Origin: an uncultured bacterium
GTDB taxonomy: Bacteria; Actinomycetota; Acidimicrobiia; Spongiisociales; ZC4RG35
NCBI GenBank assembly: GCA_963785075.1
Contig: CAWATW010000004.1
Span: 338,516-402,515, forward strand
Length of the DNA stretch: 64,000 nucleotides
Reading direction: 5' to 3'
The notes beneath the pieces are model-generated. The model saw nothing but the letters and a program-made list of their open reading frames with translations, searched no databases and was not told where the DNA came from. The position numbers and the translations under genes are program-made. How positions within the stretch are numbered: the first letter of the stretch is position 1; each line of letters begins with the position of its first letter. Below are positions 1,529 to 29,525 of this stretch, piece after piece.

Positions 1529-3055
1529 ATGGCGGCCACCGAAACCTTGAAGCGTCTCCTTCGGGACCTGACCGCCTCCCAGAAGTCCGTGATGGCGGCA
1601 GCAACCGTCGTCGTCCTGATCGCGTCGGCGGCGTTCTTCACCTGGGTGACGCAGCCTTCGTACACTGTTCTCTATTCGGGGATCGACGAGACCCAGCTCA
1701 GCCAGGTCGTGGACTCATTGGAGGCTGCGGGCGTGCCGTATCGGCTCGAAGGCGGTGGATCGAGGGTCCTCGTGCCGCAGGACTCGGTGTACCGGGTTCG
1801 AGCCGACCTCGCCGCCGACGGGATCCAGGCCTCGGTGGTCCCTCAGGGTTACGAACTGCTCGACGAGCAGGGGCTTTCGGTGTCGGACTTTCGCCAGCGC
1901 GTCGACTACCAACGAGCTCTCGAGGGTGAACTCGCCCGAACTCTCACAGCGATGGGGTCGGTCGACAGCTCGACAGTGCATCTGGTCATCCCCGAAGAGG
2001 CGCTCTTCGTGGAGAACCAAGAGCCGGTGACGGCTTCGGTGCTCGTCGATCCGAATGGTTCCCTCGCCGACTCGGACATCGAAGCGATCGTGATGCTTGT
2101 CGCATCCTCGGTCGAAGGCCTCGAACCCAGCCAGGTCACAGTCGCCTCGACCGATGGGGTCGTTCTCCATGCCGCCGGAGAGGACGGCGCCACTGCGCTC
2201 GGCAATCGCCAGCTCAGGCTGACGTCGGACTTCGAGACTGCACTCTCCACCGACATCAACGAGATGCTGGCATCGGTCCTCGGGGCTGGGCGCGCATCGG
2301 TCGTCGTCCGCGCCGAGCTCGACTTCGACGAGCGCTCGACCGAGAGCGAGACCTATTCCCCCGAGTCGGCGACCGCCCTCCGTAGCCAGGTGATCGAAGA
2401 GACCTTCACCGGAGCAGGCGCAGCGCCGGTCGGGTCGGTCGGTGTCGACGGCGCCGCCATCGACACCGGTGACGGGGCGTACGACTACTCCCGGAACGAG
2501 GACACCACCGAGTTCGGCATCGATCGAGTCGTGGTCAAGACCACCGAGGCGCCCGGAACGGTCGAACGTCTCTCGGTGGCCGTGGTCGTGGACGACGGCA
2601 GCCTCACCGGGGCGACCGCGCCCGACGTGACGGCGATCGAGTCCCTCGTCACGGCTGCGATCGGCGCACAACAGCAACGCGGCGATACGGTCGAGGTGTC
2701 GGCCGTGCCATTCCCCGCATTGCCCGAAGCAATCGAAGGAGCGCCCTTGGAAGAGGGCGGGATCATGACGTTGATCCCGACGATCATCGGCGCGCTCGTC
2801 CTCCTGCTCGTCACGGTGGCACTGTTCCTGATGAGCCGGGGCAGCAAGAAGAAGGCGAGGAAGGGCGAGATCATCGAGCTCGCGCAGGCATTGCCGGGTG
2901 GCGACGGATCCGCGATCGACGCCAACGACATGGCCAATCAGAACGCCGTTCTCGGCCTCACCGACGACGTGATCCAACTCGTGGAACGTCAGCCGGAGGA
3001 GATCGCCACCCTGCTCAGGTCTTGGCTCGCCGACCGCCGTGAGACGGTGGGCTGA
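1529..3055 (+). CDS. fliF: flagellar MS-ring protein FliF
   Basis: 508 aa with an N-terminal TM segment, a periplasmic ring region (..YRLEGGGSRVLVPQDSVYRVRADLA..), a C-terminal TM segment and a charged tail. Confidence 0.9.
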   Translation: MAATETLKRLLRDLTASQKSVMAAATVVVLIASAAFFTWVTQPSYTVLYSGIDETQLSQVVDSLEAAGVPYRLEGGGSRVLVPQDSVYRVRADLAADGIQASVVPQGYELLDEQGLSVSDFRQRVDYQRALEGELARTLTAMGSVDSSTVHLVIPEEALFVENQEPVTASVLVDPNGSLADSDIEAIVMLVASSVEGLEPSQVTVASTDGVVLHAAGEDGATALGNRQLRLTSDFETALSTDINEMLASVLGAGRASVVVRAELDFDERSTESETYSPESATALRSQVIEETFTGAGAAPVGSVGVDGAAIDTGDGAYDYSRNEDTTEFGIDRVVVKTTEAPGTVERLSVAVVVDDGSLTGATAPDVTAIESLVTAAIGAQQQRGDTVEVSAVPFPALPEAIEGAPLEEGGIMTLIPTIIGALVLLLVTVALFLMSRGSKKKARKGEIIELAQALPGGDGSAIDANDMANQNAVLGLTDDVIQLVERQPEEIATLLRSWLADRRETVG

Positions 3056-4083
3056 TGGCAAACGGCTCTGCGCTTCCTGTCCCGACCGGCCCCCGAGGGG
3101 TGGCCGTCCCCGCACCTCGCCAGCGAGCGGCGGCTCTCGTGCTGGCGATCGGGTCGGGCAAAGCAGCCAACATCCTCGAGCATCTCAGTCCCGACGAGAT
3201 AGCACTCCTCGCGGAGGAGGTCTCCAGCCTCGGCGACATCGACTCGGCGACGCGCAATTCGCTCATGGCGCGCACGCTCAACCACATGATGTCCATCGAT
3301 CCGAGCGAGGAGGCACGACTGCTGAGGATGCGTGCCGATGCCATGAGGGCTGCGGCAGAGCTGGATGAGCTCGGACACTTCGACCCGCACCAGCCCTTTC
3401 GATTCCTCCAGAAGGTGGAGCTCGACCAGGCGGTTCAGTTCCTCGCCAACGAGCACCCTCAGACCGCCGCCGTGATCCTCGCAGCGCAGCCGCCTACCTT
3501 CGCAGCCAAGGTGTTGTCCCACTTCGATCCGACCGAGGCAGGCGACATCTCGCTTCGCATCGCCACCATCGGCAAGACGCCGACCGAGGTCATCCAACGG
3601 ATCGAGCAGGCGATGCGAAAGAACCTCAGCGAAAGCAACGAAGGCGAGGGCGAAACGCGAGACGGACCAAAGGAGCTGGCCGCAATCCTCAACAACGCAG
3701 ATCGCGACATAGAGGAGAAGGTGCTCGCCCATCTCACCTCGTTCGACCAGGAACTCGCCGAACGAGTTCGATCGCTCATGTTCGTCTTCGAGGATGTTCA
3801 GACGCTCGAAGACCGGGCCATCCAGCAGGTACTGCAACAGGTGAACACGAACTCGCTGGCACTTGCCCTGAAAGGCGTCGACGAGGCCGTACGCGACAAG
3901 ATCCTCAACAACCTGTCGGAGCGGGCACGCGAGTCGCTCCTGGAGGAATTCGATCTCCTCGGCGCCGTCCGCAAACAGGACGTCATGGAGGCTCGGACCG
4001 CAATCGTCGCCACCATCCGCTCGCTCGAGGCGAGCGGCCAGATCGTGATCGCAAGAGGAGACGACAGTGAGTTCATCGAATAG
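3055..4083 (+). CDS. fliG: flagellar motor switch protein FliG
   Basis: 342 aa, ..AALVLAIGSGKAANILEHLSPDEIALLAEEV.. and a FliG C-terminal domain. ATG overlaps the fliF TGA. Confidence 0.9.
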   Translation: MANGSALPVPTGPRGVAVPAPRQRAAALVLAIGSGKAANILEHLSPDEIALLAEEVSSLGDIDSATRNSLMARTLNHMMSIDPSEEARLLRMRADAMRAAAELDELGHFDPHQPFRFLQKVELDQAVQFLANEHPQTAAVILAAQPPTFAAKVLSHFDPTEAGDISLRIATIGKTPTEVIQRIEQAMRKNLSESNEGEGETRDGPKELAAILNNADRDIEEKVLAHLTSFDQELAERVRSLMFVFEDVQTLEDRAIQQVLQQVNTNSLALALKGVDEAVRDKILNNLSERARESLLEEFDLLGAVRKQDVMEARTAIVATIRSLEASGQIVIARGDDSEFIE

Positions 4084-15426: not shown

Positions 15427-16665
15427 GTGGGAGCAGTTGCAGAGATCCTCCATCTCGACCTCGATGCGTTCTATGCATCGGTCGAGCAGCTCCTACGCCC
15501 CGAGCTCCGGGGCAGACCAGTCGTGGTAGGAGGCGGCGTGGTACTCGCCGCCTCCTACGAGGCCAGGGCCTTCGGTATATCGGCCCCCATGAACATCAGG
15601 CGGGCGAGAGAACTGTGCCCGCACGTCATCTCGGTGGGCGGGTCATTCGAGAAGTACTCCGAGCTCTCGCAACAGGTGATGGACATCTGCCGTGACGCCA
15701 CTCCCCTGGTGGAACAGATCTCGATCGACGAGGCGTTTCTCGACGTGTCAGGCTCCATCCACCTGCTCGGTGCCCCCGCCGACATCGGGGCCGACCTCAG
15801 AGCACGGATCCGGGCCGAGGTCGGCCTTCCCATCTCGGTGGGTGTGGCATCGACCAAGTTCCTCGCCAAGGTGGCCTCGGGCCAGGCCAAACCCGACGGC
15901 ATGCTCGTCATCGACCCCGCTCGTGAGCTCGAGTGGTTGCACGCGCTCCCCGTACGCGTGATCTGGGGTGTCGGACCGGTCACGGAGACCAACCTCATCG
16001 CCCACGGGATAGAACGGGTCGGACAGATCGCCGAGGCGCCTCCCGAGGCGCTCGCACGGTGGTTGGGACCTGGCGCCGGTCGACACCTCCACGCACTCGC
16101 CTGGAATCGTGACCCCCGATCCGTCAAGGTTGGAGGGCGGGCGGGTTCCGTCGGTGCCCAGAGCGCCCTCGGTCGCGGCCTCACCGCCGACTCGGACCTC
16201 GGCCGCGTCGTGCTGGGGCTCGCAGATCGAGTCTCGGGACGTATGCGCAAGAAGGAACGAGCGGGTCGCACGATCACCGTGCGGGTTCGCTTTGCCGACA
16301 TGGCCAGCGTGACACGGTCCGTCACCCTCCCGGCCGCAGTGTCGACCACGGCAGCGCTTCATCATGCGGGCCTCGAGCTGTTGGCCTCGGCTCGCGCCGA
16401 TCGACCAGGGATCGTGACGCTGGTTGGCATCAGCGTCTCTCATCTCGAGCAGGGCGAAACCCTCCAACTCGAGCTGCCCTTCGACCAGGGTGACCCGACC
16501 CGTGCAGGCAGCCCTCGTGGGGCGGCGCACCTCATGATCGACGAACAGGTCGACGCAGCCAGGGAACGTTTTGGGAAGGATGCGGTCGGCCGAGCATCGG
16601 TGATGCTCGATCGGAACGCGAGGGGCGTTCCCGACGGCTTCCGCGAGTTGGCCGAGAAGGAGTAG
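15427..16665 (+). CDS. dinB: DNA polymerase IV (Y-family, DinB)
   Basis: ILHLDLDAFYASVEQ, RPVVVGGG, AASYEARAFGI, SIDEAFLDVSG and VGVASTKFLAKVASGQAKPDG are all DinB motifs. GTG start. Confidence 0.85.
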   Translation: MGAVAEILHLDLDAFYASVEQLLRPELRGRPVVVGGGVVLAASYEARAFGISAPMNIRRARELCPHVISVGGSFEKYSELSQQVMDICRDATPLVEQISIDEAFLDVSGSIHLLGAPADIGADLRARIRAEVGLPISVGVASTKFLAKVASGQAKPDGMLVIDPARELEWLHALPVRVIWGVGPVTETNLIAHGIERVGQIAEAPPEALARWLGPGAGRHLHALAWNRDPRSVKVGGRAGSVGAQSALGRGLTADSDLGRVVLGLADRVSGRMRKKERAGRTITVRVRFADMASVTRSVTLPAAVSTTAALHHAGLELLASARADRPGIVTLVGISVSHLEQGETLQLELPFDQGDPTRAGSPRGAAHLMIDEQVDAARERFGKDAVGRASVMLDRNARGVPDGFRELAEKE

Positions 16666-16765
16666 AAGCGACCGGACGCGAGCAGGCGGATTTCCGCCCG
16701 ACGCCGAACGCCCGACGGAACCCGCAAACCACAACACGGGGGCCGGGCAGGCATAGGCTGGAACG

Positions 16766-17512
16766 ATGCGGCTGACGGTCATCGGGTCTGCGGGCGGATA
16801 TCCGGCACCGGGTGTTGCCACCTCCGGCTACCTCATCGACCACGGCGAAACCAGGATCTGGTGTGACATCGGTCCGGGCACGGTGGTCGGGTTCCCAGAC
16901 CGGTTGGACACTGTGGACGCGGTCGTCGTCTCCCACGAGCACCCGGATCACTGCCTCGACCTGATCGCGCTGTTCCACGCCCTGGCGTACCGCTTGGGGC
17001 CACCACCAGGGCCTCTGGCGGTGTATGCCCCGCGCCCGGCGATCGACAAGGTCAGAGCCTTCGTGACTCCCGACCAGACGGAACTCATCGACCGAACGTT
17101 CTCGTTCCATCCCATCGAGGTCGATTCGATCGTGGAGGTCGGATCGATTCGGGCCACCTTCGCCGAGACCACACACCCCGTGCAGACGGTGGCGATGCGA
17201 TTCACGGCCGACGGCCACAGTATCGCCTACACCGGCGACACCGGCCCCGCCGGCGACTGGACGAGGGTCGCCGTCGACGCCGACCTACTCCTGTGTGAGG
17301 CGACGTTCGTGGGCACACGAGACGACTACCCCTACCCGTATCACCTCAACGCCTTCGAAGCCGGGCGCATCGCAGCCGCGAGCGGCGTCGACCGGTTGGT
17401 ACTGACGCACATCCCGATGCATTGGGACCCGGCACGATCGCTGATCGAGGCGGGGACCCACTTCGACGGGGATCTGCGCCTCGCCGAGCCCGGTGCCTCC
17501 TGCTCGATCTGA
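16766..17512 (+). CDS. MBL-fold metallo-hydrolase
   Basis: VVVSHEHPDHCLDL (HxHxDH motif) plus downstream His/Asp ligands. Confidence 0.75.
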   Translation: MRLTVIGSAGGYPAPGVATSGYLIDHGETRIWCDIGPGTVVGFPDRLDTVDAVVVSHEHPDHCLDLIALFHALAYRLGPPPGPLAVYAPRPAIDKVRAFVTPDQTELIDRTFSFHPIEVDSIVEVGSIRATFAETTHPVQTVAMRFTADGHSIAYTGDTGPAGDWTRVAVDADLLLCEATFVGTRDDYPYPYHLNAFEAGRIAAASGVDRLVLTHIPMHWDPARSLIEAGTHFDGDLRLAEPGASCSI

Positions 17513-18665: not shown

Positions 18666-20716
18666 GGCGCGGAGCGGGAGCCCAGATGTTGACGCCACTG
18701 CTGCTCGTGGGCGTGGTCCTCATGATGGTGGTGCCAATGCCACCTGTGATGCTCGACGTGATGCTGGCGGCGAACTTCACGCTGGCAATCCTTGCACTGC
18801 TTGCCGCCATGCTGCTGAAGGACTCGCTCGAACTGTCGGTGTTCCCGTCGTTCCTTCTCGTCGCCACCCTCACACGGCTTGCCCTCAACGTGTCGTCGAC
18901 GCGGCTCATCCTGCTCAACGGCTACGCCGGCAAGGTGATCGACGCATTCGGGACGTTCGTCATCGGCGGATCCGTCGTGGTCGGCCTGGTCGTGTTCCTG
19001 ATCCTGGTGATCATCCAATTCGTCGTCATCACGAACGGTGCCGGCCGGGTGGCCGAGGTCGCGGCTCGATTCACCCTCGACGCCATGCCCGGCAAGCAGA
19101 TGGCGATCGATGCCGATCTCGGGTCGGGTCTGATCAACGAGGCGCAGGCGAGGGAGATGCGGGCCAAGATCGCCAAGGAGGCCGACTTCTACGGCGCCAT
19201 GGATGGTGCGTCCAAGTTCGTCAAGGGTGATGCCATCGCCGGCGTCATCATCACGTCGATCAACCTGATCGGTGGGATGGCGATCGGGCTCGGATCGGCC
19301 GGGCTGGGTTTTGGGGAGGCGGTCGACACCTACTCACGCCTCTCGGTCGGCGACGGCCTCGTCTCGCAGATCCCGGCGTTGCTGATCTCGATCGCCACCG
19401 GTCTGCTGGTGACGAGGGTCGGCTCGGACAACGCCATGGGTTCCGACCTCGCCCGTCAGGTATTCGGCAACCCCGACGCCCTCAGGATCGGATCCATCGT
19501 CCTCACCGGGATGGGCCTGCTGCCCGGGCTTCCAAAAGTCCCCTTCTTCGGGATCGCTGCACTGCTGTTCTTCCTATCCACACGGGCCGCCGGCACCAAA
19601 GCCGACGACGAGATTCCCCTCGACGGCGAGCCAGAGATCCGCACCAGCCCCGACGACCCTGAAGCGCTCATCGAACGGATGCGCCTCGAGCCGTTGGAGC
19701 TGCACCTCTCCCACGAAATCCTCGATCTGGTGGACCCCGAGCGCGGCGGCGACCTCATGGAGCGAGTCAGATCGCTCCGCCGGCAGATCGCCGACGAGCT
19801 CGGAGTAGTCATCCCACTGCTGCGCGTGCGAGACGACGCCACGCTCCCCGAGTCGGCCTACAACATCCTCTTGCGGGGGATCGAAGTCGGCTCCGGTGTG
19901 GCACCCCGTGACCAACTCCTGGCTCTACCCATGGGCGACGGGTCGGACTTGCGAGCGATGGGTGGGTCGCCGACCACTGAGCCGGTCTTCGGACTCGAGG
20001 CGTTCTGGGTGCCGGACTCTGCCCGCAGCGCAGCCGCCGCCACCGGCGCCACGGTCGTCGATCGCTCATCTGCCGTGGTCACCCACCTCGCCGAGGTGGT
20101 CCGGACCAACGCCTCCCAGCTCCTGAGCCGGCAGGACGTGTCGATGCTGCTCGAAGGGCTTCGATACGACGAGCCCATCCTCGCCAACGAGGTCGGAACC
20201 GACCAGCTTCCGCTCCAGACCCTGCACGCGGTCCTCCGGGCACTCCTCGACGAACGGGTGTCCATTCGCGACATCGGCCGGATCATCGAAGCGGTGGCAT
20301 CCAAGGCGACCGAAACGAGGTCGGTCGAGGCGCTGGTGGCTGCGGCCAGGGTGTCACTGGGATCGGCCATCGTCGGCAAGATCGCACCGGGTGGCCGGCT
20401 CAAGCTCATCACACTCGAGCCCACCCTCGAAGCTGCATATCACGAGGCGATCCGCGAAGTCGACGGGACATCGCATCTGGTGCTCGACCCGGGAAAGCTG
20501 GAACGCCTGAGAGCGGACACGACGGCAGCGCTGTCGGCGGTGTCCGGTGAACCGTTGGCTCTCGTCTGCAGCCTGGCGCTGCGCAAGCCCCTCCACAGAA
20601 CCCTCACATCACTCGGCGTCGACCTCCCCGTGGTGGCCTACCCCGAGCTTCCCGCACACCTGGAACTCATCCCGATCGGAGTGATCGAACATGGCGAACC
20701 AACCCACGCTGTCTGA
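18662..20716 (+). CDS. flhA: flagellar export apparatus protein FlhA
   Basis: 684 aa with an FHIPEP-type N-terminal membrane domain and a cytoplasmic domain. ATGA overlap with flhB. Confidence 0.92.
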   Translation: MRRGAGAQMLTPLLLVGVVLMMVVPMPPVMLDVMLAANFTLAILALLAAMLLKDSLELSVFPSFLLVATLTRLALNVSSTRLILLNGYAGKVIDAFGTFVIGGSVVVGLVVFLILVIIQFVVITNGAGRVAEVAARFTLDAMPGKQMAIDADLGSGLINEAQAREMRAKIAKEADFYGAMDGASKFVKGDAIAGVIITSINLIGGMAIGLGSAGLGFGEAVDTYSRLSVGDGLVSQIPALLISIATGLLVTRVGSDNAMGSDLARQVFGNPDALRIGSIVLTGMGLLPGLPKVPFFGIAALLFFLSTRAAGTKADDEIPLDGEPEIRTSPDDPEALIERMRLEPLELHLSHEILDLVDPERGGDLMERVRSLRRQIADELGVVIPLLRVRDDATLPESAYNILLRGIEVGSGVAPRDQLLALPMGDGSDLRAMGGSPTTEPVFGLEAFWVPDSARSAAAATGATVVDRSSAVVTHLAEVVRTNASQLLSRQDVSMLLEGLRYDEPILANEVGTDQLPLQTLHAVLRALLDERVSIRDIGRIIEAVASKATETRSVEALVAAARVSLGSAIVGKIAPGGRLKLITLEPTLEAAYHEAIREVDGTSHLVLDPGKLERLRADTTAALSAVSGEPLALVCSLALRKPLHRTLTSLGVDLPVVAYPELPAHLELIPIGVIEHGEPTHAV

Positions 20717-21482
20717 CACACCAACCGTCACCATCGAGGCCGCCACGGTCGAAGAGGCACTTGGTCGCCTGACCGAGGAAGTCGGCCCCGGAGCCCGGAT
20801 ACTGCGAGCCGACCGAGTCCGGCGCGGCGGGATCGCCGGGTTCTTCGCCCGCGAGATGGTTGAGATCGAAGCAGAGGCTCCCGGCGGCGAGGGCGTCGCC
20901 GGCGCCTTCGATCGAATGCTGGAAGCCGCCGAGAGCGCAGACGAGCGCCCTGTGCTCGACGACTCTCTCACCCGCCCCACCCTCGAGTCGGGGCCGCCGG
21001 CGGCGCTCACTTCACGGCGGCGACCGGTCACCACCACCGTGTGGGACAGCGCCAAGATGCTCGAACTGGGCCTTCCGGGTGCCTTGGTGCAAGCCGTGGC
21101 CTCCCTCGACCCCTCCGACGACCTCGGTCACCTCACGGCGCTCGTAGAGGTTCTCACGCCCGTTTGCGGGTCGCTGCCCCCCCAACCCATGCGGCTGGTC
21201 GGCGAACGCGCCGAGCGGCTCCGCTCAGCGGTCGCCATCGATGAGGGCGACACCGGTCTCATCCATCTCGTCGTGGGTGACGAGCTGCCCGCAACGCTGC
21301 CCGGGGTTCCGGCCGTTGTGTCGTGGGTCAGTGACGGCGGCGTCGCCAGAGCCATCAGTCTGGCCCTGGGCACAGGAGCCTTGCTGGGCTACGGAATCGG
21401 AAGCTCCTTCGGCGCACCGGTTCGTCGGATCGCTCCCCTCGACGCCGCGATCTCGATTCGCGAGCTCATGGACCGGACATGA
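20691..21482 (+). CDS. FlhF-like protein: N-terminal B-domain only, SRP-GTPase (NG) motifs not detectable
   Basis: ..TVTIEAATVEEALGRLTEEVGPGARILRADRVRRGGIAGFFAREMVEIEAEA.. parallels B. subtilis FlhF ..TAATMQEAMKLVREELGEDAVILNSKKVKTGGFLGFFKKKNFEVIAA.. No GxxGxGKT/DTAGR motifs in the rest of the protein. 26-nt overlap with flhA. Confidence 0.5.
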   Translation: MANQPTLSDTPTVTIEAATVEEALGRLTEEVGPGARILRADRVRRGGIAGFFAREMVEIEAEAPGGEGVAGAFDRMLEAAESADERPVLDDSLTRPTLESGPPAALTSRRRPVTTTVWDSAKMLELGLPGALVQAVASLDPSDDLGHLTALVEVLTPVCGSLPPQPMRLVGERAERLRSAVAIDEGDTGLIHLVVGDELPATLPGVPAVVSWVSDGGVARAISLALGTGALLGYGIGSSFGAPVRRIAPLDAAISIRELMDRT

Positions 21483-21718
21483 ACGGACCTCAATACCTCA
21501 AGCGGCTCATCGCCATCATCGGGCTCTTGCTGATGCTGCCCATCGGGTACCAGCTGATCATGGCCACGGTGACACCGAGGGATGCGGCAATACGGGCAGG
21601 CGCTTTGTTCGTCGGCGTGGTCATGGCTCGCAAGGCGGCCGACCTCGCTCCCAGCGGCCGGACCGTGCTGATTCCCCTCCAGGACGAGCGCCCAGTCGAG
21701 ACACCGGTCGAGGGCTGA
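21479..21718 (+). CDS. small predicted membrane protein (79 aa), terminal gene of the flhBA unit
   Basis: ATGA overlap with the preceding stop, one hydrophobic segment. Confidence 0.35.
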   Translation: MNGPQYLKRLIAIIGLLLMLPIGYQLIMATVTPRDAAIRAGALFVGVVMARKAADLAPSGRTVLIPLQDERPVETPVEG

Positions 21719-22079: not shown

Positions 22080-22886
22080 TCACCCGGCGAGCGGATCGGC
22101 TTCCAGTTCCGACTCCGGCAGGGTCGCAAACACTTGCGCCGTGGCTTCGGCGAAGAGGCGGGACTCCGTCTCGACGAACCCAACGTGGCCATCGAGGTCG
22201 AGACGCTTCATAGCGATCCGGAGTGGTATGTCCAGACATCGTGTGGGGGACTCGTCTTCGACCGCGCACATCGCTGCGGCGAGCGCCCGCTCCATCTCGG
22301 TGACGGGCTCGTGATGGGCGGCGACGGCCGCCACGATGTCGGTGGGGAGATTCCACTCGGCGAGCATCTTGGTGCCCATCTCGAGATGATCGGTTTCGTA
22401 CGCCATTCGCTCGCGACGCAACATCTGCTGGTCCTGGTACCCCCGCATCCACTGCTTCCGACGCCATGCCAGGAAGCCTTCGTCCGTCGTGAGCAGTCCG
22501 GCCGTGCCGGCGGCGGAGAACAGCCCCGCCACGAACAACTGCTCGTTCTCGGCCCGGGAGAAGCCGAGGAGGCGTCCGATCAGCTTGGCGGCACGGCCCA
22601 CGACGAGAGACTCCTCCCACAGCTCAGGGGCACCCCAGGTGTCGACCAGCTCGCGGTTCAACGACGCCATGGCGAGAGCACCCACCGAGCGGCAGCCGAC
22701 TCGGATCACAGCCTCCATCACCGTTCCCACGGGATACACGGCGCCGACGTACGCAGAGTTGGCATACCGCACGACCGCTGCTGCCGTGTCGGGGATCGTC
22801 GCCACGCGGGCAGCTACCTCATACAGGTCCGGATCGTTGGCCATAGCCGCCGTCCAGAGCTCTACCTTGCGCGAGCCGAGGTCCAT
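22080..22886 (-). CDS. HDOD-domain protein (paralog 2)
   Basis: ..VYPVGTVMEAVIRVGCRSVGALAMASLNREL.., ..LFVAGLFSAAG.., ..AHHEP.. are HD-related output domain signatures. About 65% identical to the adjacent paralog. Confidence 0.7.
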   Translation of the reverse strand: MDLGSRKVELWTAAMANDPDLYEVAARVATIPDTAAAVVRYANSAYVGAVYPVGTVMEAVIRVGCRSVGALAMASLNRELVDTWGAPELWEESLVVGRAAKLIGRLLGFSRAENEQLFVAGLFSAAGTAGLLTTDEGFLAWRRKQWMRGYQDQQMLRRERMAYETDHLEMGTKMLAEWNLPTDIVAAVAAHHEPVTEMERALAAAMCAVEDESPTRCLDIPLRIAMKRLDLDGHVGFVETESRLFAEATAQVFATLPESELEADPLAG

Positions 22887-22998
22887 GATGCGTCAATATC
22901 TCCTTGGAGGACCGGTCGGCCGTTTCGGACGCTGGAAAAGACCTCGGGAGGCGTTGATCGGGCCTGTACGCCGATTCCGGCGCCCAGGCGTGGATCTG

Positions 22999-23811
22999 TC
23001 AGGCGACTCGTTCGGCGACACGCTTCGACGCCACTGCGGCTCCGGGTGAGTCGCCCTCTCCGAACACGGCCTCCACGTACCGAAGCGCCTCGACGCGCAC
23101 GGAATCCACGTGCTTCGACAGTCCGATCTCGTCCATCGCTGCGGTGAACGGAGTGTCATGACACCTCGTTGCCGATCGTGAATCCGGGATGGTCATCCCC
23201 GCCCACAAGGCGAGGTCGAACCGATTCCGGGGCTCGTGATGCGACGCGACCGCATCGATGATCGAGGTGGGCATGTTCCACTCGTCGAGCAGGCGAGACG
23301 CGGCGACCACGTGATCGAACTCATAAGCCATCCGCTCACGATGCAGCATCTGATCCTCGCCAAGCCCCTTCACCCATTGGTTGGCTCGCCACGAGAGGTA
23401 GCCGGCGTCCTGGGCGCTGAGCGCAGCGGCACCTGCACTCGAGAAGAGACCAGCGACGAACAGGGACTCGGATTCGCGGCGGGGGAAGCCGTGGAGCCGA
23501 CCGATCATTCGAGCTGCACGGCCCACAGCAAGGGCGTCTGATGCCAACTCGGGGATGTCCCACCGATCGGCCAACTCACGATTCAGCGAGGCGAGCGCTA
23601 TCGCTCCGACCTGCCGACCACCGATCCGCACGACTGCGTCGAGCACACTCGCGACGGGGTACACCGCACCGACGTAGGAGGAGTTGGCGAAACGGATGAC
23701 CGCGCTCACCGTATCGGGGATCGTGCCGAGCAGTGCAGCGATCCCGAACACATCGGGCTCATCATCCGAGGCCAATCGCCACAATTCGAGTTTGCGCTCA
23801 ACGACATCCAT
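22999..23811 (-). CDS. HDOD-domain protein (paralog 1)
   Basis: Start chosen at MDVVERKLELW by alignment with paralog 2 (MDLGSRKVELW). Carries ..ASHHEP.. Confidence 0.7.
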   Translation of the reverse strand: MDVVERKLELWRLASDDEPDVFGIAALLGTIPDTVSAVIRFANSSYVGAVYPVASVLDAVVRIGGRQVGAIALASLNRELADRWDIPELASDALAVGRAARMIGRLHGFPRRESESLFVAGLFSSAGAAALSAQDAGYLSWRANQWVKGLGEDQMLHRERMAYEFDHVVAASRLLDEWNMPTSIIDAVASHHEPRNRFDLALWAGMTIPDSRSATRCHDTPFTAAMDEIGLSKHVDSVRVEALRYVEAVFGEGDSPGAAVASKRVAERVA

Positions 23812-23867
23812 CACGTCACGCTCCCCCGTCGACCAGGTCGGTGCGACCAAAAGCGCTTGGCAGCGGA

Positions 23868-24740
23868 TCAGCCCGCTTCGTACAGACGAGCGTTGCCGGT
23901 GGTGGCGGACTCGAGCAGCGACTCTGCATCGAGTCGGGTGCGCCAGTTCGATTGATCGGCCATGCGAGCGACGTAGGCGGCTCGTGCGCGCTTCCCGGGC
24001 GCAGAATCCGGGGAAGGCTCGACGCCCTCGTATTGGGTCGAGAAGAACGAGCGCATGGCCATCAGCGCCTCCGACCGGATCTGACTGACCCGGGCCTCGG
24101 TGAGACCGAGATCGTCGGCGATGTCCTGTAGGAGCTCCCCTTCCAGGTAGTAGCGGGAGATCACCTCGGCCTGAACGGTCGGAAGATGGCGAACGGCGTC
24201 CACGAGCGACCCCCGAAGCTCGCGCTGCTCGAGCGCCACCTCGGGGAGCGTCTCCACCCGCTCTTCTTCCACGCGGTCGGCAAGCGAGGTTTCGTCGGTC
24301 TCACTCGGTTGGTCGAGGTGGAGCAGTGTGCTGGTGGCGGCGTGGGCCTGCCGGCTGTTGAGCTCGGCGACGGAGATACCCAGGAAGGCGGCGATCTCGT
24401 CGGTGGTGGGGGGACGTCCGTGCTGCTCCTCGAGCCCGGTCTGGGTCTCCTGGATCTCGCGGAGCCGGCGGCGAACGGATCGGCTGGCCCAGTCCCGGGT
24501 CCGTGTGGAGTCGATGATGGCACCGCGAATCCGGATTGCGGCGTAGCGGGCGAACGGTATCCCGGATTCGGGGTCGTACCGCCGGCTGGCCTCCACGAGA
24601 CCGAGTGCGCCGGCGTTCCAGAGTTCGGAACGATCGACATGACGCGGATACCGCGCCGACACTTCACTGACGATGTGGCCTACGAGATCGAGGGTTTCCG
24701 AGACGAGCTCGTTCTGCTCCTCCGCCGTCAACGCTGCCAT
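23868..24740 (-). CDS. fliA: flagellar sigma factor sigma-28 (FliA/WhiG family) with a ~55-aa C-terminal extension
   Basis: ..RYPRHVDRSELWNAGALGLVEASRRYDPESGIPFARYAAIRIRGAIIDSTRTRDW.. is region 2; ..LLQDIADDLGLTEARVSQIRSEALMAMR.. is region 4. Start set at MAALTAEEQ (24740) so as not to overlap the divergent gene at 24880; the upstream in-frame ATG at 24818 (MALKDQ..) and the ORF-track start at 24905 would run into that gene. Confidence 0.8.
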   Translation of the reverse strand: MAALTAEEQNELVSETLDLVGHIVSEVSARYPRHVDRSELWNAGALGLVEASRRYDPESGIPFARYAAIRIRGAIIDSTRTRDWASRSVRRRLREIQETQTGLEEQHGRPPTTDEIAAFLGISVAELNSRQAHAATSTLLHLDQPSETDETSLADRVEEERVETLPEVALEQRELRGSLVDAVRHLPTVQAEVISRYYLEGELLQDIADDLGLTEARVSQIRSEALMAMRSFFSTQYEGVEPSPDSAPGKRARAAYVARMADQSNWRTRLDAESLLESATTGNARLYEAG

Positions 24741-24879
24741 GATGTGGACCCCCAAATGCGTGCCGAATGCCTTACGTTTCAGGGATCGGACAATCGGGGG
24801 CTGATCCTTGAGGGCCATATTTGCATAGTCACTCGCCCGAATCACGAAACCTCGGCGCGATCGGCCGACAGGTCCCTCG

Positions 24880-25329
24880 ATGACAACGGCACTGGCCTCT
24901 CCCACGTACTACGACCTGATCGGTCTCCTCGCCAACGAACGCCGACTCCTCGAGCGGCTTCTGTTCCGCCACGCAGAGATCTCGATGCTGATCGCCGCGG
25001 GCGAGCACCGATTCGTCGGCCGCGCCGTCGACGAGGCCCTCGAAGTCGAGGCCGAGCTCGCCGCATGTGACCTCACCAGGGCGATGATGCTCGTAGGCCT
25101 CACGCCTCACGGTGACGACATGTCGATGGCCGAGCTCATCTCCGAGGCACCCGCCGAGTTCGAGACGCCGCTCGGCGATCTGACCCGCGACATGAAGCGA
25201 ATCATGGCCCAGGTGGATCGATATCGTCGCGAGGCGGCAGCTTGGGCCGGGGAACGAGCCGAGCAGGTTCGGCAGGCCATCGAGCGCTTCGGCGCCGAGA
25301 CCTACTTGGACGGCCGGTTGGGGTCCTGA
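24880..25329 (+). CDS. FlgN-family-like protein (paralog of the flgN at 28332-28844)
   Basis: LLANERRLLERLLFRHAEISMLIAAGEHRFVGRAVDEALEVEAEL aligns with LHAERQLLEHLLFKLIEARLVLAADEARFLPQAMREVEAIVDRV of the other copy. 3' end overlaps csrA convergently by 28 nt. Confidence 0.5.
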   Translation: MTTALASPTYYDLIGLLANERRLLERLLFRHAEISMLIAAGEHRFVGRAVDEALEVEAELAACDLTRAMMLVGLTPHGDDMSMAELISEAPAEFETPLGDLTRDMKRIMAQVDRYRREAAAWAGERAEQVRQAIERFGAETYLDGRLGS

Positions 25330-25562
25330 AGCTTGAGTCCCGTCGCCTTCGTCGACAACAAGCTGGACTTCAGGTCGGTGGACGCAGCGGCTGCACGGTT
25401 CTCAGCCAGCACCTGCTCGTATATCTCCGCACGATGAACCGCGAGACTCCGCGGTGCATCGACGCCCACTCGTATCTGACCGCCTCGAACCTCGAGGATG
25501 GTGATCACAACATCGTTCCCGATGACGATGGACTCGCCGGCTCGTCTGCTCAGCACCAGCAT
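25302..25562 (-). CDS. csrA: carbon storage regulator CsrA
   Basis: MLVLSRRAGESIVIGNDVVITILEVRGGQIRVGVDAPRSLAVHRAEIYEQV is canonical CsrA. 1-nt TGATG overlap with fliW. Confidence 0.88.
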   Translation of the reverse strand: MLVLSRRAGESIVIGNDVVITILEVRGGQIRVGVDAPRSLAVHRAEIYEQVLAENRAAAASTDLKSSLLSTKATGLKLQDPNRPSK

Positions 25563-25954
25563 CAGCCGGCGCTCACAGGCAGCAGCGCCCTGATCGGGTA
25601 GTCCTGGTCGGTGAGTACGACCTGACGCCCCATCCGGGTCTTCACGTTGACGATGAATGGTCCCAACAGATTCATGTGTGCACTCTTGCGGTCGGAGTCC
25701 AGCGTAACGGCGCAGAACACGACCGCATCCTGTTCCTGCTCGATACCCAGCCCCGCCTGGTCGACGTCGGTGAGCTCGGGGGCATAGTCGGGAAAGAACA
25801 GCCACGGCACGCCAACGACGATCGCCAAGTCGGGATCATCGACGTTCTGGAGCAGCTGGAACGCTCCGTCGTCGACGAGTTCGACGAGTTGGAAGCGATG
25901 GGCATCCGGAAACCCGGGAATCCCATCGTCGAACTCCAGATACTGCTCATCCAT
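25562..25954 (-). CDS. fliW: flagellar assembly factor FliW
   Basis: 130 aa, ..GIPGFPDAHRFQLVEL..DPDLAIVVGVPW.. Forms a fliW-csrA pair as in Bacillus. Confidence 0.8.
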   Translation of the reverse strand: MDEQYLEFDDGIPGFPDAHRFQLVELVDDGAFQLLQNVDDPDLAIVVGVPWLFFPDYAPELTDVDQAGLGIEQEQDAVVFCAVTLDSDRKSAHMNLLGPFIVNVKTRMGRQVVLTDQDYPIRALLPVSAG

Positions 25955-26061
25955 CGGCGGCTACTTCCTCGATCGGCTCGTGCAGGGAATGAGGGTAGTG
26001 GCCCGGACCCCCGGTGGCCGGTAGGGACGGTGTCTCGGTCGATCGGGCGGGTGGAGGCAGG

Positions 26062-26955
26062 TCAGCGGAGGAACGATGCCAGTGACGGCTGCAGGGACTT
26101 GGCAAGGGCGCTCTGTGCCGCCTGATAGGCCGTCTCCTGGATCTGAAGCTCCATGATGGCCCTGGCCATGTCTGTGTCCTCCGTCTCGGACAGCGCGGTT
26201 CTCATGCTGACCTCGTCGGCCTGGGCCCGGAACGCAGCCTTCTCGATCCGGTTTGCCGCCGCGCCAACCGTGGCGCGGGCCGTGAGCATCCGGTTCATCG
26301 ACCGATCGATCCGATCGATGGCCGCTCCGATGCCCGCTCTGTCCTGGCTCCTGAACGCAGTCTCCAGATCGTCGAGCATGGTGAAGACGTCCTCACCGGC
26401 AGTGAAGCCGAAGACCTCGTCACCGGTCACATTCACCTTGACCACGTCATTCTCCGACACCCGACGTGTCACCTCACCCGTGTCGCCCTCGTAGGTCCAG
26501 GCGCCGGCGACCTTGGCGACGGCATCGCCGGGTCGGAAGCCCGAAAACAGAGGGCGGCCGTTGAGCTTGGCGTTGGCGAGAGACTGCACCGACTCTCGGA
26601 TTTCGGCGATCTCGACCGCCATTGCTTCCATCTCGACCGATCCTGCGGTGCCATTGCCTCCGAGGACCGCGAGCTCGCGCACGCGCTGGAGCTGTTCGAC
26701 CATGGTCCCCATGCGGGAGTCCGCGAGTTCGGTCCAGAGCATCCCGTCGTCGGCGTTGCGCTGTGCCTGGGCATTCGCCGCCAGCGCCGCGCGCATGCCG
26801 AGCGCGGTGTTCATACCTGCGACATCGTCACTGGCGACGTGGATGCGACGCCCGGTGGCAAGATCGCGCTGCGATCGCTCGAATTCGCCGATGCGAGTGT
26901 TCATTCGCTGGACCGCGAGGTCGACCATCATTCGGTTGGTGATCCGCATGTTCAT
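26062..26955 (-). CDS. flgL: flagellar hook-associated protein 3 FlgL
   Basis: MNMRITNRMM..GRRIHVASDDVAGMNTALGMRAALAANAQAQRNADDGMLWTELADSRM..LQRVRELAVLGGNGT has the FlgL pattern rather than the flagellin N-terminus. Confidence 0.75.
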   Translation of the reverse strand: MNMRITNRMMVDLAVQRMNTRIGEFERSQRDLATGRRIHVASDDVAGMNTALGMRAALAANAQAQRNADDGMLWTELADSRMGTMVEQLQRVRELAVLGGNGTAGSVEMEAMAVEIAEIRESVQSLANAKLNGRPLFSGFRPGDAVAKVAGAWTYEGDTGEVTRRVSENDVVKVNVTGDEVFGFTAGEDVFTMLDDLETAFRSQDRAGIGAAIDRIDRSMNRMLTARATVGAAANRIEKAAFRAQADEVSMRTALSETEDTDMARAIMELQIQETAYQAAQSALAKSLQPSLASFLR

Positions 26956-26961
26956 CTCTCA

Positions 26962-28332
26962 TTACCTCCCGACGATGCCCATTCGATTGATCACAGTGTC
27001 GAGCGCCTGATCGACGGTCGTGATGACCCTCGCCGCCGCCTCGTACATCCTCTGGAATTCGATGAGACTCACCATTTCTTCATCAACTGACACGGCGTGA
27101 CTCGAGGACCGGGCGAGGTCGGCGGCCGACGAGAGACCGGCCTGAGTCTCCGACGACATGCGGGCTGTCGCCGATTCCTGTCCCAAGGCCGTCACGAACG
27201 TTCGATACGACTCGAGCAACGACTGCGTGCCTCCGGACGCAGCGAGCGTCGATCGAAGATCGGACAGTCTCTGGGCGTTGGAGCCGTCGAAGGTGGGATA
27301 CGGCGGTCCGGCCGACGATGCCGTCGCCAGATCGGCGGGAGCGGCGATGACCACCCTGAAGGTGGTGGCCGGCGAACCGGCGTCGAACGTCACAAGCGGA
27401 CCACCTGGGGCGCCGGCAGCCGTGAACCCGGCGGCGTGCGTGGTGTTCAAGGCATCGGTGAGATCTCTCACGAAGTCGTCGAGCCGCGTCTTCATCGCCG
27501 GGATGTCCTCGGTGACCGAAAGCTGCAATCCGCGCAGCTCACCGCCGGGGACCAGTGCAACGCCACTGGCGTGAAGCACTTGCCCCGTGCCCTCGTCGTA
27601 GGAGAGTGGACGGGAGGTCGACCCGTTCACGAGTGAGATACCGCCGATCATCACCCTGGCATTGCCGTTGTCTTCGATGGCGACGCTGACGCCGGCGAGC
27701 TCTGACAACCGGTCGAGCAGCATGTCCCGCTGATCCATCAGGTCGTTCGGCGAGCCTGGGGCGGTGGACGCGTCGAGGATCGCCACGTTCAGCTTCGCCA
27801 CCTGATCCAAGGCGTTGTTGATCTCTTGGACGGTCGAACGGATCGAGACCACACCGTCCTGTCGAAGGGAGTCCAGCCCAGTACCCACAGCCGCTACGCG
27901 CCCGGTGAGTGCACCGAGTTGTTCGATCACGGCCACACGGGAGGCTTCGTCGGAGGGGTTGAGGGCGAGATCTTCGAAGGCGTCGAACACCGATCCGAGT
28001 TCCGCGGTGACGCCCATCTCAGGCTCGGCCAAGATCTGTTCGGCCCGGTCGAAGAACGAGGCACGCGCCTCGATGTTGTGCCGTGCCGAGACACTCGACC
28101 GATACCGTGCGTCCAGAAAGGTGTCACGCACCCGGTTGATGTCAGTCACCTTCACTCCCAATCCGACCTGACCGTTGGGGGTCATTCGGGGATACCTCGA
28201 CGCCATGTCGACACGCTGGCGGGTGTATCCGGCAGTGTTGGCGTTCGACACATTGTGGCTGGCGGTGTCCATGGCGAGCTGGGCCGCTCGCAGTCCGCTG
28301 AGCGCAACATGCAGCGCCGAGAAGTCTGCCAT
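26962..28332 (-). CDS. flgK: flagellar hook-associated protein 1 FlgK
   Basis: MADFSALHVALSGLRAAQLAMDTASHNVSNANTAGYTRQRV.. and C-term ..SVDEEMVSLIEFQRMYEAAARVITTVDQALDTVINRMG. Confidence 0.85.
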   Translation of the reverse strand: MADFSALHVALSGLRAAQLAMDTASHNVSNANTAGYTRQRVDMASRYPRMTPNGQVGLGVKVTDINRVRDTFLDARYRSSVSARHNIEARASFFDRAEQILAEPEMGVTAELGSVFDAFEDLALNPSDEASRVAVIEQLGALTGRVAAVGTGLDSLRQDGVVSIRSTVQEINNALDQVAKLNVAILDASTAPGSPNDLMDQRDMLLDRLSELAGVSVAIEDNGNARVMIGGISLVNGSTSRPLSYDEGTGQVLHASGVALVPGGELRGLQLSVTEDIPAMKTRLDDFVRDLTDALNTTHAAGFTAAGAPGGPLVTFDAGSPATTFRVVIAAPADLATASSAGPPYPTFDGSNAQRLSDLRSTLAASGGTQSLLESYRTFVTALGQESATARMSSETQAGLSSAADLARSSSHAVSVDEEMVSLIEFQRMYEAAARVITTVDQALDTVINRMGIVGR

Positions 28333-28844
28333 CAGAGCACCTCATCGATGTGGGTGGGAAGAACGGCAGTCTGGCGACCACGAGTTCCGCTTGGTGTGTA
28401 CGTGCCTGCGTCCTGGGTCCCCAGCAACGTTCCGAGCGTGTCTGAGAGGCTCTGTACTGCAAGCCCGGCAAGACGTCGATTGTCGAGCGAGGCCTGTTCG
28501 ATCTCGGTCGTGAGACGTCGGAAGTGATCCTGATGCTCCTGGAACATGGTTCGAAAGGGCTCGGGTGACCAACCGACGAGGAACTTCATGGTGATTCGGT
28601 CTTCTGGTTCGCCGATGGCATCCGCCAGTCGTTGCACCGCAACCCGACGATGACCCTCTCCGAACCGCACGCGGTCGACGATCGCTTCCACCTCGCGCAT
28701 CGCCTGCGGAAGGAAACGCGCCTCGTCAGCCGCAAGTACGAGGCGCGCCTCGATCAGCTTGAAGAGAAGATGCTCGAGCAGCTGACGCTCGGCGTGAAGC
28801 GTCTCAGCGAGCTCGGCCAGCTGTTGGCGGTAGGCGATGCTCAT
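28332..28844 (-). CDS. flgN: flagellar export chaperone FlgN-family protein
   Basis: Position upstream of flgK as in B. subtilis, FlgN-like helical sequence. Alternative start at 28853. Confidence 0.6.
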   Translation of the reverse strand: MSIAYRQQLAELAETLHAERQLLEHLLFKLIEARLVLAADEARFLPQAMREVEAIVDRVRFGEGHRRVAVQRLADAIGEPEDRITMKFLVGWSPEPFRTMFQEHQDHFRRLTTEIEQASLDNRRLAGLAVQSLSDTLGTLLGTQDAGTYTPSGTRGRQTAVLPTHIDEVL

Positions 28845-28901
28845 CGTCAGCATCCTGTCGGCTCTCGAATTGGTGAATAAAGGCTTCGAGAGGGTTTCTG
28901 T

Positions 28902-29525
28902 ATGACCCGAGGATGGTCACTTCCCCTCGCCGACTGCACAGCTATCGTCGGGGGGGTGACGCGCGTTCTTCCCGATGACCCGGTGGAGCTCAAGAACCTG
29001 CTGGATGCAGCTCTCGACGAGCTCGAACGACTGAAACTCACCTTGGAGGTTGTCGGCACCACCGATCTCGATGCAGGGATCCTCAACCGAACGGGTGTCC
29101 TGGAGTCATTGGAACGGGGTCGAAGATGGATGGCGCGCCGCGGCGACATCTACGGGTTGGTCGTCGTGCGGTTCCCCATGCTCCGGCGACTGGATCCCAC
29201 CGACGCCGGCGACCTCGACTTGATCCAGCACCTCGCAGCGACGATCGGGGCCGGCGTCCGCGAGGTCGACGAAGTGGGGCGCATCGACGACCTCACCTAC
29301 GCGGCCACCCTGCAAGACCTGAAGCCAGGCACGATTCGGGTCGTGGTCGATCGCGTCCAGACCCTGCTCTCCAAGACACTCATGTCGATGCCGGATCTCG
29401 GCCATTTCAAGCTGGGTGCGGTCGAAGTGCTCAACGCCGGCCACACATCGGGCACGGTCCTCGAGGCGGCCATTCGGATATCGGACCAGGCGTCCATCGA
29501 CAATCACCGAGTCGGTCAGCTGTAG
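28902..29525 (+). CDS. degenerate GGDEF-domain protein (GGEEF replaced by RIDDL), probably catalytically inactive
   Basis: ..DAGILNRTGV..GLVVVRFPMLRRLD..LDLIQHLAATIG..EVGRIDDLTYAATLQD..VVDRVQTLL..KLGAVEVLN.. follows the GGDEF domain architecture with a degenerate active site. Confidence 0.45.
   Translation: MTRGWSLPLADCTAIVGGVTRVLPDDPVELKNLLDAALDELERLKLTLEVVGTTDLDAGILNRTGVLESLERGRRWMARRGDIYGLVVVRFPMLRRLDPTDAGDLDLIQHLAATIGAGVREVDEVGRIDDLTYAATLQDLKPGTIRVVVDRVQTLLSKTLMSMPDLGHFKLGAVEVLNAGHTSGTVLEAAIRISDQASIDNHRVGQL

Follow-up and report, generated by a model that had tools for sequence, protein, structure and literature searches.

Background

FlgM, the anti-sigma-28 factor, is missing from the Acidimicrobiia, the Nitriliruptoria and the Actinomycetia (PMC10746217), and the anti-sigma partner of the flagellum-linked actinobacterial WhiG1/FliA "remains unclear" (PMC13595943). 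A described actinobacterial case of a sigma-28-family factor with a partner other than FlgM is the RsiG-(c-di-GMP)-WhiG system of Streptomyces and Rubrobacter, in which the partner is linked to cyclic di-GMP (c-di-GMP) (PMC7005675, PMC8325347). HDOD proteins have been tied to motility several times (GsmR, Cj0248, SadB, PFL_0554, PFL_5871 and PSPTO_4229), with a mechanism defined for SadB only: in Pseudomonas aeruginosa, SadB binds a segment adjacent to the AmrZ C-terminus and delivers AmrZ to the protease Lon, with no ligand bound (PMC12075610). In Pseudomonas syringae DC3000, PSPTO_4229 affects flagellar motility, presumably via protein-protein contacts (PMC11813219). Here, we describe a locus in which the gene of the flagellar sigma factor FliA is followed by the genes of two stand-alone HDOD proteins, called HDOD1 and HDOD2. 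The locus belongs to the flagellar gene cluster of a stretch of 64,000 nucleotides ("the window", GC content 65%) from an uncultured bacterium of the Acidimicrobiia (assembly GCA_963785075.1, contig CAWATW010000004.1, positions 338,516 to 402,515). A contig from a metagenome-assembled genome (MAG), L007, comes from a near-identical relative, its FliA being 99% identical, and the remaining relatives are annotated as Acidimicrobiia.

An earlier note on this DNA had proposed that the HDOD proteins form a control module for FliA. Given the comparisons reported below, it is very probable that the HDOD proteins are part of the flagellar regulon and act as motility regulators. That FliA itself is their direct target is a more tentative reading, to which we assign a probability of roughly one in three from the analysis of sequences and predicted structures. 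Direct action on FliA is favoured because of the invariant position of the HDOD genes after fliA, the operon-like arrangement of the deepest branches and the apparently FliA-dependent expression of the HDOD genes.

Conservation of the fliA-HDOD linkage

The gene calls agree with the layout described in the earlier note: fliA is followed by two co-directional genes coding for stand-alone HDOD proteins, with gaps of 56 bp (fliA-HDOD1) and 112 bp (HDOD1-HDOD2) given an HDOD1 start at the ATG in position 23811, which is backed by the homologues. In a scan of 185,579 species genomes, the HDOD subfamily was found in 18 loci, all from Acidimicrobiia. In all 17 genome loci with readable upstream sequence (17/17), fliA lies directly upstream of HDOD on the same strand, and the same linkage was recovered in contigs reached via individual proteins and in metagenome loci. 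The co-occurrence of fliA and HDOD is thus strongly conserved, down to identities of 59% for FliA and 42% for HDOD, and no unlinked copy of the subfamily was detected in the genome scan. The genes located 3' of HDOD vary by locus and correspond to the flhA operon, to an aldehyde dehydrogenase or to rhodanese and molybdopterin genes.

All linked loci have a copy of the HDOD2 type, in most of them the sole one beside fliA. HDOD1 is present in addition in one sub-clade of loci only, where it has come to lie between fliA and HDOD2. We regard HDOD2 as the ancestral copy and HDOD1 as a younger, faster-evolving paralog. The identity of about 65% previously given for the two paralogs proved too high: they share 53% protein identity over 249 residues and 58-60% DNA identity, with third codon positions saturated at 39%. 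These values point to an old duplication. In the deepest members (L021, L023, L024 and L060), the gap between fliA and HDOD is only 15-34 nucleotides and contains no separate promoter-like motif, an arrangement that appears operon-like.

Promoter-like motifs of the flagellar units

Comparison of the fliA-HDOD intergenic regions across loci revealed a recurring box, GCCGACAGG or GTCGACTGG, located 6-25 nucleotides before the HDOD start. In the window, the motif CTTNA-N15-GYCGACNGG is found before nine units (flgB, motA, fliN, flhB, the FlgN-like gene, flbD, flgN, HDOD1 and HDOD2), with one register shared by 9/9 of them. The motif is present before 25 of the 32 distinct HDOD genes of related loci, the exceptions coming mostly from the deepest branches. 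With 10 sites for 6.3 expected, GYCGACWGG alone is not found above chance in the window, and the 4 intragenic copies of the 9-mer are all devoid of a -35 box; only the position of the sites and the linked -35 box are non-random. Sites of the motif often lie 0-9 nucleotides from the start codon, many of them at 6-9 nucleotides from the ATG, which implies that the flagellar mRNAs driven by the motif would be mostly leaderless or have a short leader.

The motif retains the GCCGA -10 core and the 15-nucleotide spacing of the sigma-28 consensus, and the search pattern published for actinobacterial WhiG/FliA promoters also has a GCCGA -10 (PMC13595943). We infer that it serves as the FliA (sigma-28) promoter in this lineage and that the HDOD genes are in the FliA regulon; a motif of sigma-28-like form makes their membership of the flagellar regulon probable. 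A strict scan of the window with the canonical sigma-28 consensus (TAAA-N14-16-GCCGATAA, at most 2 mismatches) gave no match, and a generic sigma-70 and terminator scan gave nothing around fliA, HDOD1 and HDOD2. The nine motif-bearing units include early (flgB, flhB) as well as late flagellar genes. If the motif is FliA-dependent, a single sigma factor would govern the whole cluster, and a split into classes II and III would be absent.

The earlier note had described fliA and the two HDOD genes as an operon. The presence of a promoter-like motif before each of the two HDOD genes casts doubt on this term; on the other hand, no intrinsic terminator was found between fliA, HDOD1 and HDOD2, so that read-through from fliA is possible. 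When the RNA of the intergenic gaps was folded, no signal above that of shuffled controls was obtained. The same note held that HDOD promoters of their own, together with a linkage to fliA not conserved in relatives, would speak against a control module. The former are indeed predicted, but belong to a flagellar, sigma-28-like class, and no loss of linkage was seen for the HDOD genes. In the loci L015-L017 and L041, a perfect hairpin, GAGAACTCCCC...GGGGAGTTCTC, follows fliA directly and holds the -35 box of the HDOD promoter (TTAAG) in its loop; this structure may be terminator and promoter both.

The region upstream of fliA, comprising an inverted repeat and a box, is conserved in more than 20 loci. 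The clearest forms of the repeat read GACTATT-N5-AATAGTC and abut the TCAAG box, and canonical CCGATAA or GTCGATAA forms of the downstream part are found in L023 and L024. This region may consist of an operator and of an autoregulated or distinct promoter.

Promoters of flagellar class, such as those of motA, fliN and flbD, are also what would be expected if the HDOD proteins were late products of the flagellar regulon acting on the motor, the switch complex or chemotaxis. They would then modulate swimming in a dose-sensitive manner, and the position after fliA would only secure co-expression. We hold this explanation to be possible, and about as likely as direct control of FliA. It draws on PSPTO_4229, a stand-alone HDOD protein of 273 residues with a chemotaxis-like fitness profile, whose deletion and overexpression both lower swimming, an effect that needs the C-terminal 80 residues and a predicted protein-interaction Arg pair (PMC11813219). 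Mutants of the HDOD proteins Cj0248 and PFL_0554/PFL_5871 show motility phenotypes as well, and HDOD was lost in several FliA lineages, as for an accessory modulator. However, it is not obvious why a motor effector should need a post-fliA position that is invariant across rearrangements, nor does such a role fit well with the operon-like deepest branches, and no chemotaxis genes were found among the open reading frames (ORFs) scanned, which represent a part of those of the window.

Nature of the HDOD proteins

A word-indexed protein search retrieved only about 30 clusters of close HDOD relatives, all of them stand-alone proteins of about 267-271 residues. When 1.84 billion representatives were scanned exhaustively with HMMER, no more than 4 clusters scored E <= 1e-30, and beyond the subfamily there is a gap in score, from 265 bits to the values of about 110 bits reached by the general HDOD superfamily (13,828 representatives). 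By these searches, the HDOD proteins of the locus form a small, sharply delimited subfamily restricted to Acidimicrobiia. Its nearest outgroup relatives are HDOD-GGDEF fusions. Matches from Solirubrobacteraceae were rejected as members, being HDOD-GGDEF fusions of 480-500 residues found in non-flagellar contexts.

Both HDOD1 and HDOD2 contain the Pfam HDOD domain (PF08668, curated cut-off of 22.9 bits) and no other domain was found in them. The motifs RKxxxW (N-terminal), RFANSxYVG, ExLFVAGLFSxAG, WRxxQ, DH, WNxP, HHxP and SxxRC (C-terminal) are invariant in the subfamily alignment. When compared with the di-iron HDOD protein 3HC1, the position of the HD dyad reads F-S (in GLFSxAG) and the first metal-binding histidine aligns with E/S, the DH and HH motifs alone remaining. 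The metal set H...HD...H...D of catalytic HD and HD-GYP proteins is thus incomplete. With the HD dyad changed to F-S and the first histidine lost, the HDOD proteins are almost certainly not hydrolases and, being deprived of the HD metal dyad, are probably protein-binding modules. The AlphaFold2 model has a predicted local distance difference test score (pLDDT) of 74 overall and above 80 for residues 80-250, the N-terminal 80 residues being poorly modelled. Using Foldseek, the predicted fold was found to match HDOD structures only, with 3M1T, 3I7A, 3HC1, 3MEM, SadB (9QZK), MmoQ and Cj0248 (1VQR) as top matches. The C-terminal 50-70 residues exceed the region matched by the other HDOD proteins, and are both conserved and confidently modelled.

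The same domain raises the alternative that the HDOD proteins are sensors of a small molecule (e.g. c-di-GMP) or of a metal. Together with a degenerate-GGDEF protein of 207 residues encoded in the locus, they would couple flagellar expression to a second messenger, in parallel to c-di-GMP-RsiG-WhiG. HDOD is related to HD-GYP, the outgroups are fused to GGDEF, and the pocket residues H167, H191 and H192 and one Cys are invariant, whereas the HD dyad is lost. The degenerate-GGDEF protein has its active-site motif replaced (IDDLTY or LDDVTF) and keeps, in 12 orthologues, an RxxD located five residues upstream of the active-site position; a c-di-GMP receptor is a possible role for it. Conserved in the locus, it is encoded divergently beside fliA where HDOD is absent. 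The window also encodes a GGDEF-EAL protein of 852 residues (54801-57359, plus strand), so that the organism has c-di-GMP metabolism. In the distant, HDOD-less Acidimicrobiia locus L057, the gene found directly after fliA (1730-3256, plus strand) encodes an HD_5 (HD-GYP-type) protein of 508 residues. Descent of the HDOD proteins from such an HD-GYP protein was considered and rejected, their sequences having no detectable similarity. As to ligand binding, SadB of Pseudomonas fluorescens was reported as c-di-GMP-binding, but that of P. aeruginosa does not bind c-di-GMP and mutations in its pocket are without effect (PMC12075610). Moreover, according to published work the flagellum-linked WhiG1 is not under c-di-GMP-RsiG control. 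Overall, a sensor role seems improbable to us.

FliA, its C-terminal tail and the proposed control of FliA

FliA contains Sigma-70 regions 2, 3 and 4 and is encoded within the flagellar cluster, as expected of a member of the FliA/WhiG family. Against the FliA/WhiG model TIGR02479, it reaches 182.6 bits over residues 13-231, about 7 bits short of the cut-off of 189.6. Its closest solved relatives are WhiG (6PFV/6PFJ) and FliA (6PMI). Region 4 ends at about residues 231-236 and is followed by about 55 residues that are covered by no profile or solved chain, whereas in the solved FliA/WhiG chains region 4 ends 3-12 residues short of the C-terminus. The unusual C-terminal tail of about 55 residues that the earlier note had pointed out is thus real, and it is conserved: the motif PGKRARAAY-x9/10-W[RK]xR[LI][DE] varies hardly at all among 19 orthologues. 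AlphaFold2 predicts two helices in the tail (residues 250-263 and 266-280, pLDDT 80-90). A search of the protein database with a profile of the tail retrieved short fragments only, which says nothing on its distribution; the latter was taken from the metagenome locus scan and from a search with full-length FliA.

Neither FlgM nor RsiG was recovered. The absence of FlgM from the window, already reported in the earlier note, was found again: the Pfam FlgM family (PF04316) has no match in the HDOD proteins or in the window ORFs scanned, which include a part of the small ORFs. The RsiG motif E(X)3S(X)2R(X)3Q(X)3D has no strict match in the six reading frames of the window, and the NCBIfam RsiG model has none among the proteins scanned.

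If FliA is the direct target, the HDOD proteins would be protein-binding regulators feeding back on FliA itself. Produced each time FliA is active, they would act on it by sequestration, in the manner of an anti-sigma factor, or by passing it to a protease, as SadB passes AmrZ to Lon, and the result would be a negative feedback loop in a flagellar system lacking FlgM. HDOD2 would be the ancestral partner, and the duplicate HDOD1 might tune the loop or heterodimerise with HDOD2. In the strongest version, the fliA-linked HDOD proteins would functionally replace FlgM, as a new class of anti-sigma-28 factors or of protease adaptors with a degenerate fold of the HD type: produced under the control of a FliA promoter, they would bind FliA, possibly at its lineage-specific C-terminal helical extension, and thereby set flagellar expression. 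We judge this version unlikely.

Several points weigh against direct control of FliA or limit the earlier interpretation. To our knowledge, no HDOD protein is an anti-sigma factor, and the genes adjoining fliA elsewhere, such as cheY and fliZ, often do not code for FliA regulators. The lack of FlgM was already known for the class as a whole and is not peculiar to this locus. With full-length FliA, tail included, more than 120 clusters were retrieved at >=62% identity, and the tail is far more widespread than HDOD. At least ten loci exhibit a tail-bearing FliA without a downstream HDOD (L043-L047, L051, L052, L056-L058, L063, L064 and L066), and HDOD-linked and HDOD-less loci interleave on a neighbour-joining tree of FliA. 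FliA can therefore function without HDOD, and the tail, being found in the absence of HDOD, is not an HDOD-specific docking site. A coupling between tail and HDOD was accordingly rejected, the tail having the same appearance in both kinds of loci. The interleaving also suggests that the fliA-HDOD linkage is old and was lost several times. Regarding the promoters, the earlier interpretation is weakened by those that the HDOD genes appear to have of their own. The assignment of the motif to FliA and not to another sigma factor is deduced, its -35 box CTTNA fits TAAA partly, and the upstream box of fliA, TCAAG-N16/17-xCCGAT(G/AA), differs from the flagellar motif. Finally, PSPTO_4229, the closest architectural analogue, behaves as a chemotaxis-like gene in fitness profiling (PMC11813219).

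Control of FliA could also be exerted by other proteins of the locus, namely a FlgN-like protein of 149 residues or the degenerate-GGDEF coiled coil, the HDOD proteins being bystanders. The former, a second, weakly FlgN-like protein of the cluster, might bind the helical tail of FliA, as FliT binds FlhDC. Amphipathic helices at the C-terminus are a target of flagellar export chaperones, and the prediction for the FliA tail shows two helices. The FlgN-like gene has its own GCCGACAGG motif and is divergent from fliA in all HDOD-linked loci and in the HDOD-less L044 and L047, while the degenerate-GGDEF gene flanks fliA in the HDOD-less L064, L066, L046 and L056. Neither gene, however, is universally located beside a tail-bearing fliA, and the FlgN-like annotation is weak (Pfam FlgN, E 0.0016, under the Pfam cut-off). 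Such a role of these proteins has, in our view, a low probability.

Other features of the locus

In five of the HDOD-less loci (L064, L066, L043, L044 and L047), a convergent pair coding for a single-domain CheY-like receiver and an Hpt-receiver-receiver protein is located after fliA, with polyprenyl synthase and clpC/clpB-like genes beyond it. In other HDOD-less loci, an HNH protein is the neighbour of the tail-bearing fliA.

The features of the window are listed in Table 1. The minus-strand genes (the flgN unit, fliA, HDOD1 and HDOD2) converge on a run of flagellar genes on the plus strand. A DinB/IMS-family translesion polymerase gene and a metallo-beta-lactamase-fold gene (15427-17512, plus strand) are inserted between fliR and flhB, as they are in L001. 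The protein of 263 residues encoded after flhA has an N-terminal FlhF-like stretch only, with no GTPase domain detected in it; this protein and the membrane protein of 79 residues that follows are both conserved across related loci.

Table 1. Features of the fliA-HDOD locus and of the surrounding flagellar cluster (positions in the window)
Feature	Position	Strand	Description
flgB, fliE, FlgD, FlgE, MotA, FliL, FliN, FliO, fliP/Q/R, flhB, flhA		+	flagellar genes, in this order
263-residue protein, then 79-residue membrane protein	20691..21718	+	after flhA; end at 21718
HDOD2	22080..22886	-	stand-alone HDOD, 268 residues; PF08668, 97.1 bits
HDOD2 promoter-like motif	22912..22940	-	CTTTT-N15-GCCGACCGG; 25 nucleotides before ATG, with AAGGAG ribosome-binding site between
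HDOD1	22999..23811	-	stand-alone HDOD, 270 residues; PF08668, 84.7 bits
HDOD1 promoter-like motif	23825..23853	-	CTTTT-N15-GTCGACGGG; end 13 nucleotides before ATG
fliA	23868..24740	-	sigma-28 (FliA/WhiG family), 290 residues; Pfam Sigma70 r2, r3, r4
FliA C-terminal extension (residues 236-290)	23871..24035	-	outside all FliA/WhiG profiles and solved chains
Region upstream of fliA	24785..24830	-	inverted repeat GACTAT-N-ATAG(T/G)C; CTCAAG; TCCGAT 17 nucleotides on
FlgN-like protein	24880..25329	+	149 residues; divergent from fliA; GCCGACAGG motif at 24864, 7 nucleotides before ATG
flgN-flgK-flgL-fliW-csrA unit	25302..28853	-	upstream of fliA; GCCGACAGG motif at 28862
Coiled-coil and degenerate GGDEF protein	28902..29525	+	207 residues; NCBIfam SiaD, E 1e-5
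Flagellar motif sites	375, 10272, 12648, 17542, 24864, 29597	+	
Flagellar motif sites	28862, 23833, 22920	-	

Comparison with known systems

The fliA-linked HDOD proteins are a new, narrowly distributed addition to the known but poorly understood HDOD regulators of motility. Placed beside fliA and behind a sigma-28-like promoter, they are candidate partners for the flagellar sigma factor of actinobacteria lacking FlgM (PMC13595943, PMC10746217). With 13,828 representative clusters, HDOD is a widespread domain, and its ties to motility recur. A second defined partner would help to generalise the function of the domain; if the HDOD proteins did replace FlgM, this would be its second defined biochemical role. 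CTTNA-N15-GCCGACAGG, a flagellar promoter specific to the lineage, can help in the annotation of Acidimicrobiia MAGs.

With FlgM, the HDOD proteins would share the role proposed here, that of a negative FliA regulator expressed from a FliA-dependent promoter. FlgM is however a disordered protein of about 100 residues that is exported through the flagellum, with no relation of sequence or fold to the HDOD proteins. The latter are folded helical proteins of about 270 residues without a PF04316 match, which places them outside the FlgM family, and nothing suggests that they are exported. RsiG, the non-FlgM partner described in actinobacteria, differs in being a coiled coil with ExxxSxxRxxxQxxxD motifs, none of which is found in the window; in published work, its partners come from the WhiG2 clade rather than from WhiG1, the clade linked to the flagellum.

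Among HDOD proteins, the loss of GsmR in Xanthomonas campestris or of Cj0248 in Campylobacter jejuni alters flagellar synthesis or motility. GsmR differs in being a response regulator fused to HDOD, and a linkage to fliA is reported for neither protein. SadB (PDB 9QZK) has, as the HDOD proteins of the locus do, an HDOD fold with a degenerate metal pocket, and it exerts a post-translational control on a transcription factor with ties to the choice between motility and biofilm (PMC12075610). It differs by an N-terminal YbaK-like domain which is needed for function and is absent here, by a target that is a ribbon-helix-helix regulator instead of a sigma factor, and by an identity of 17% in the structural alignment. 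The HDOD proteins of the locus, of 268-270 residues against 457 for SadB and with the HDOD domain alone detected, are not adaptors of the SadB type in domain make-up, although they may act in a similar way.

PSPTO_4229 comes from another phylum, is homologous at the level of the HDOD superfamily only and has no described linkage to fliA. Pseudomonas also has FlgM, and the phenotype of PSPTO_4229 is nearer to a defect of chemotaxis than of gene regulation. In architecture the likeness is close: within its 273 residues, the HDOD domain covers residues 23-210 and is followed, as in the proteins of the locus, by a C-terminal part, of about 70-80 residues in PSPTO_4229, where it is required for function (PMC11813219).

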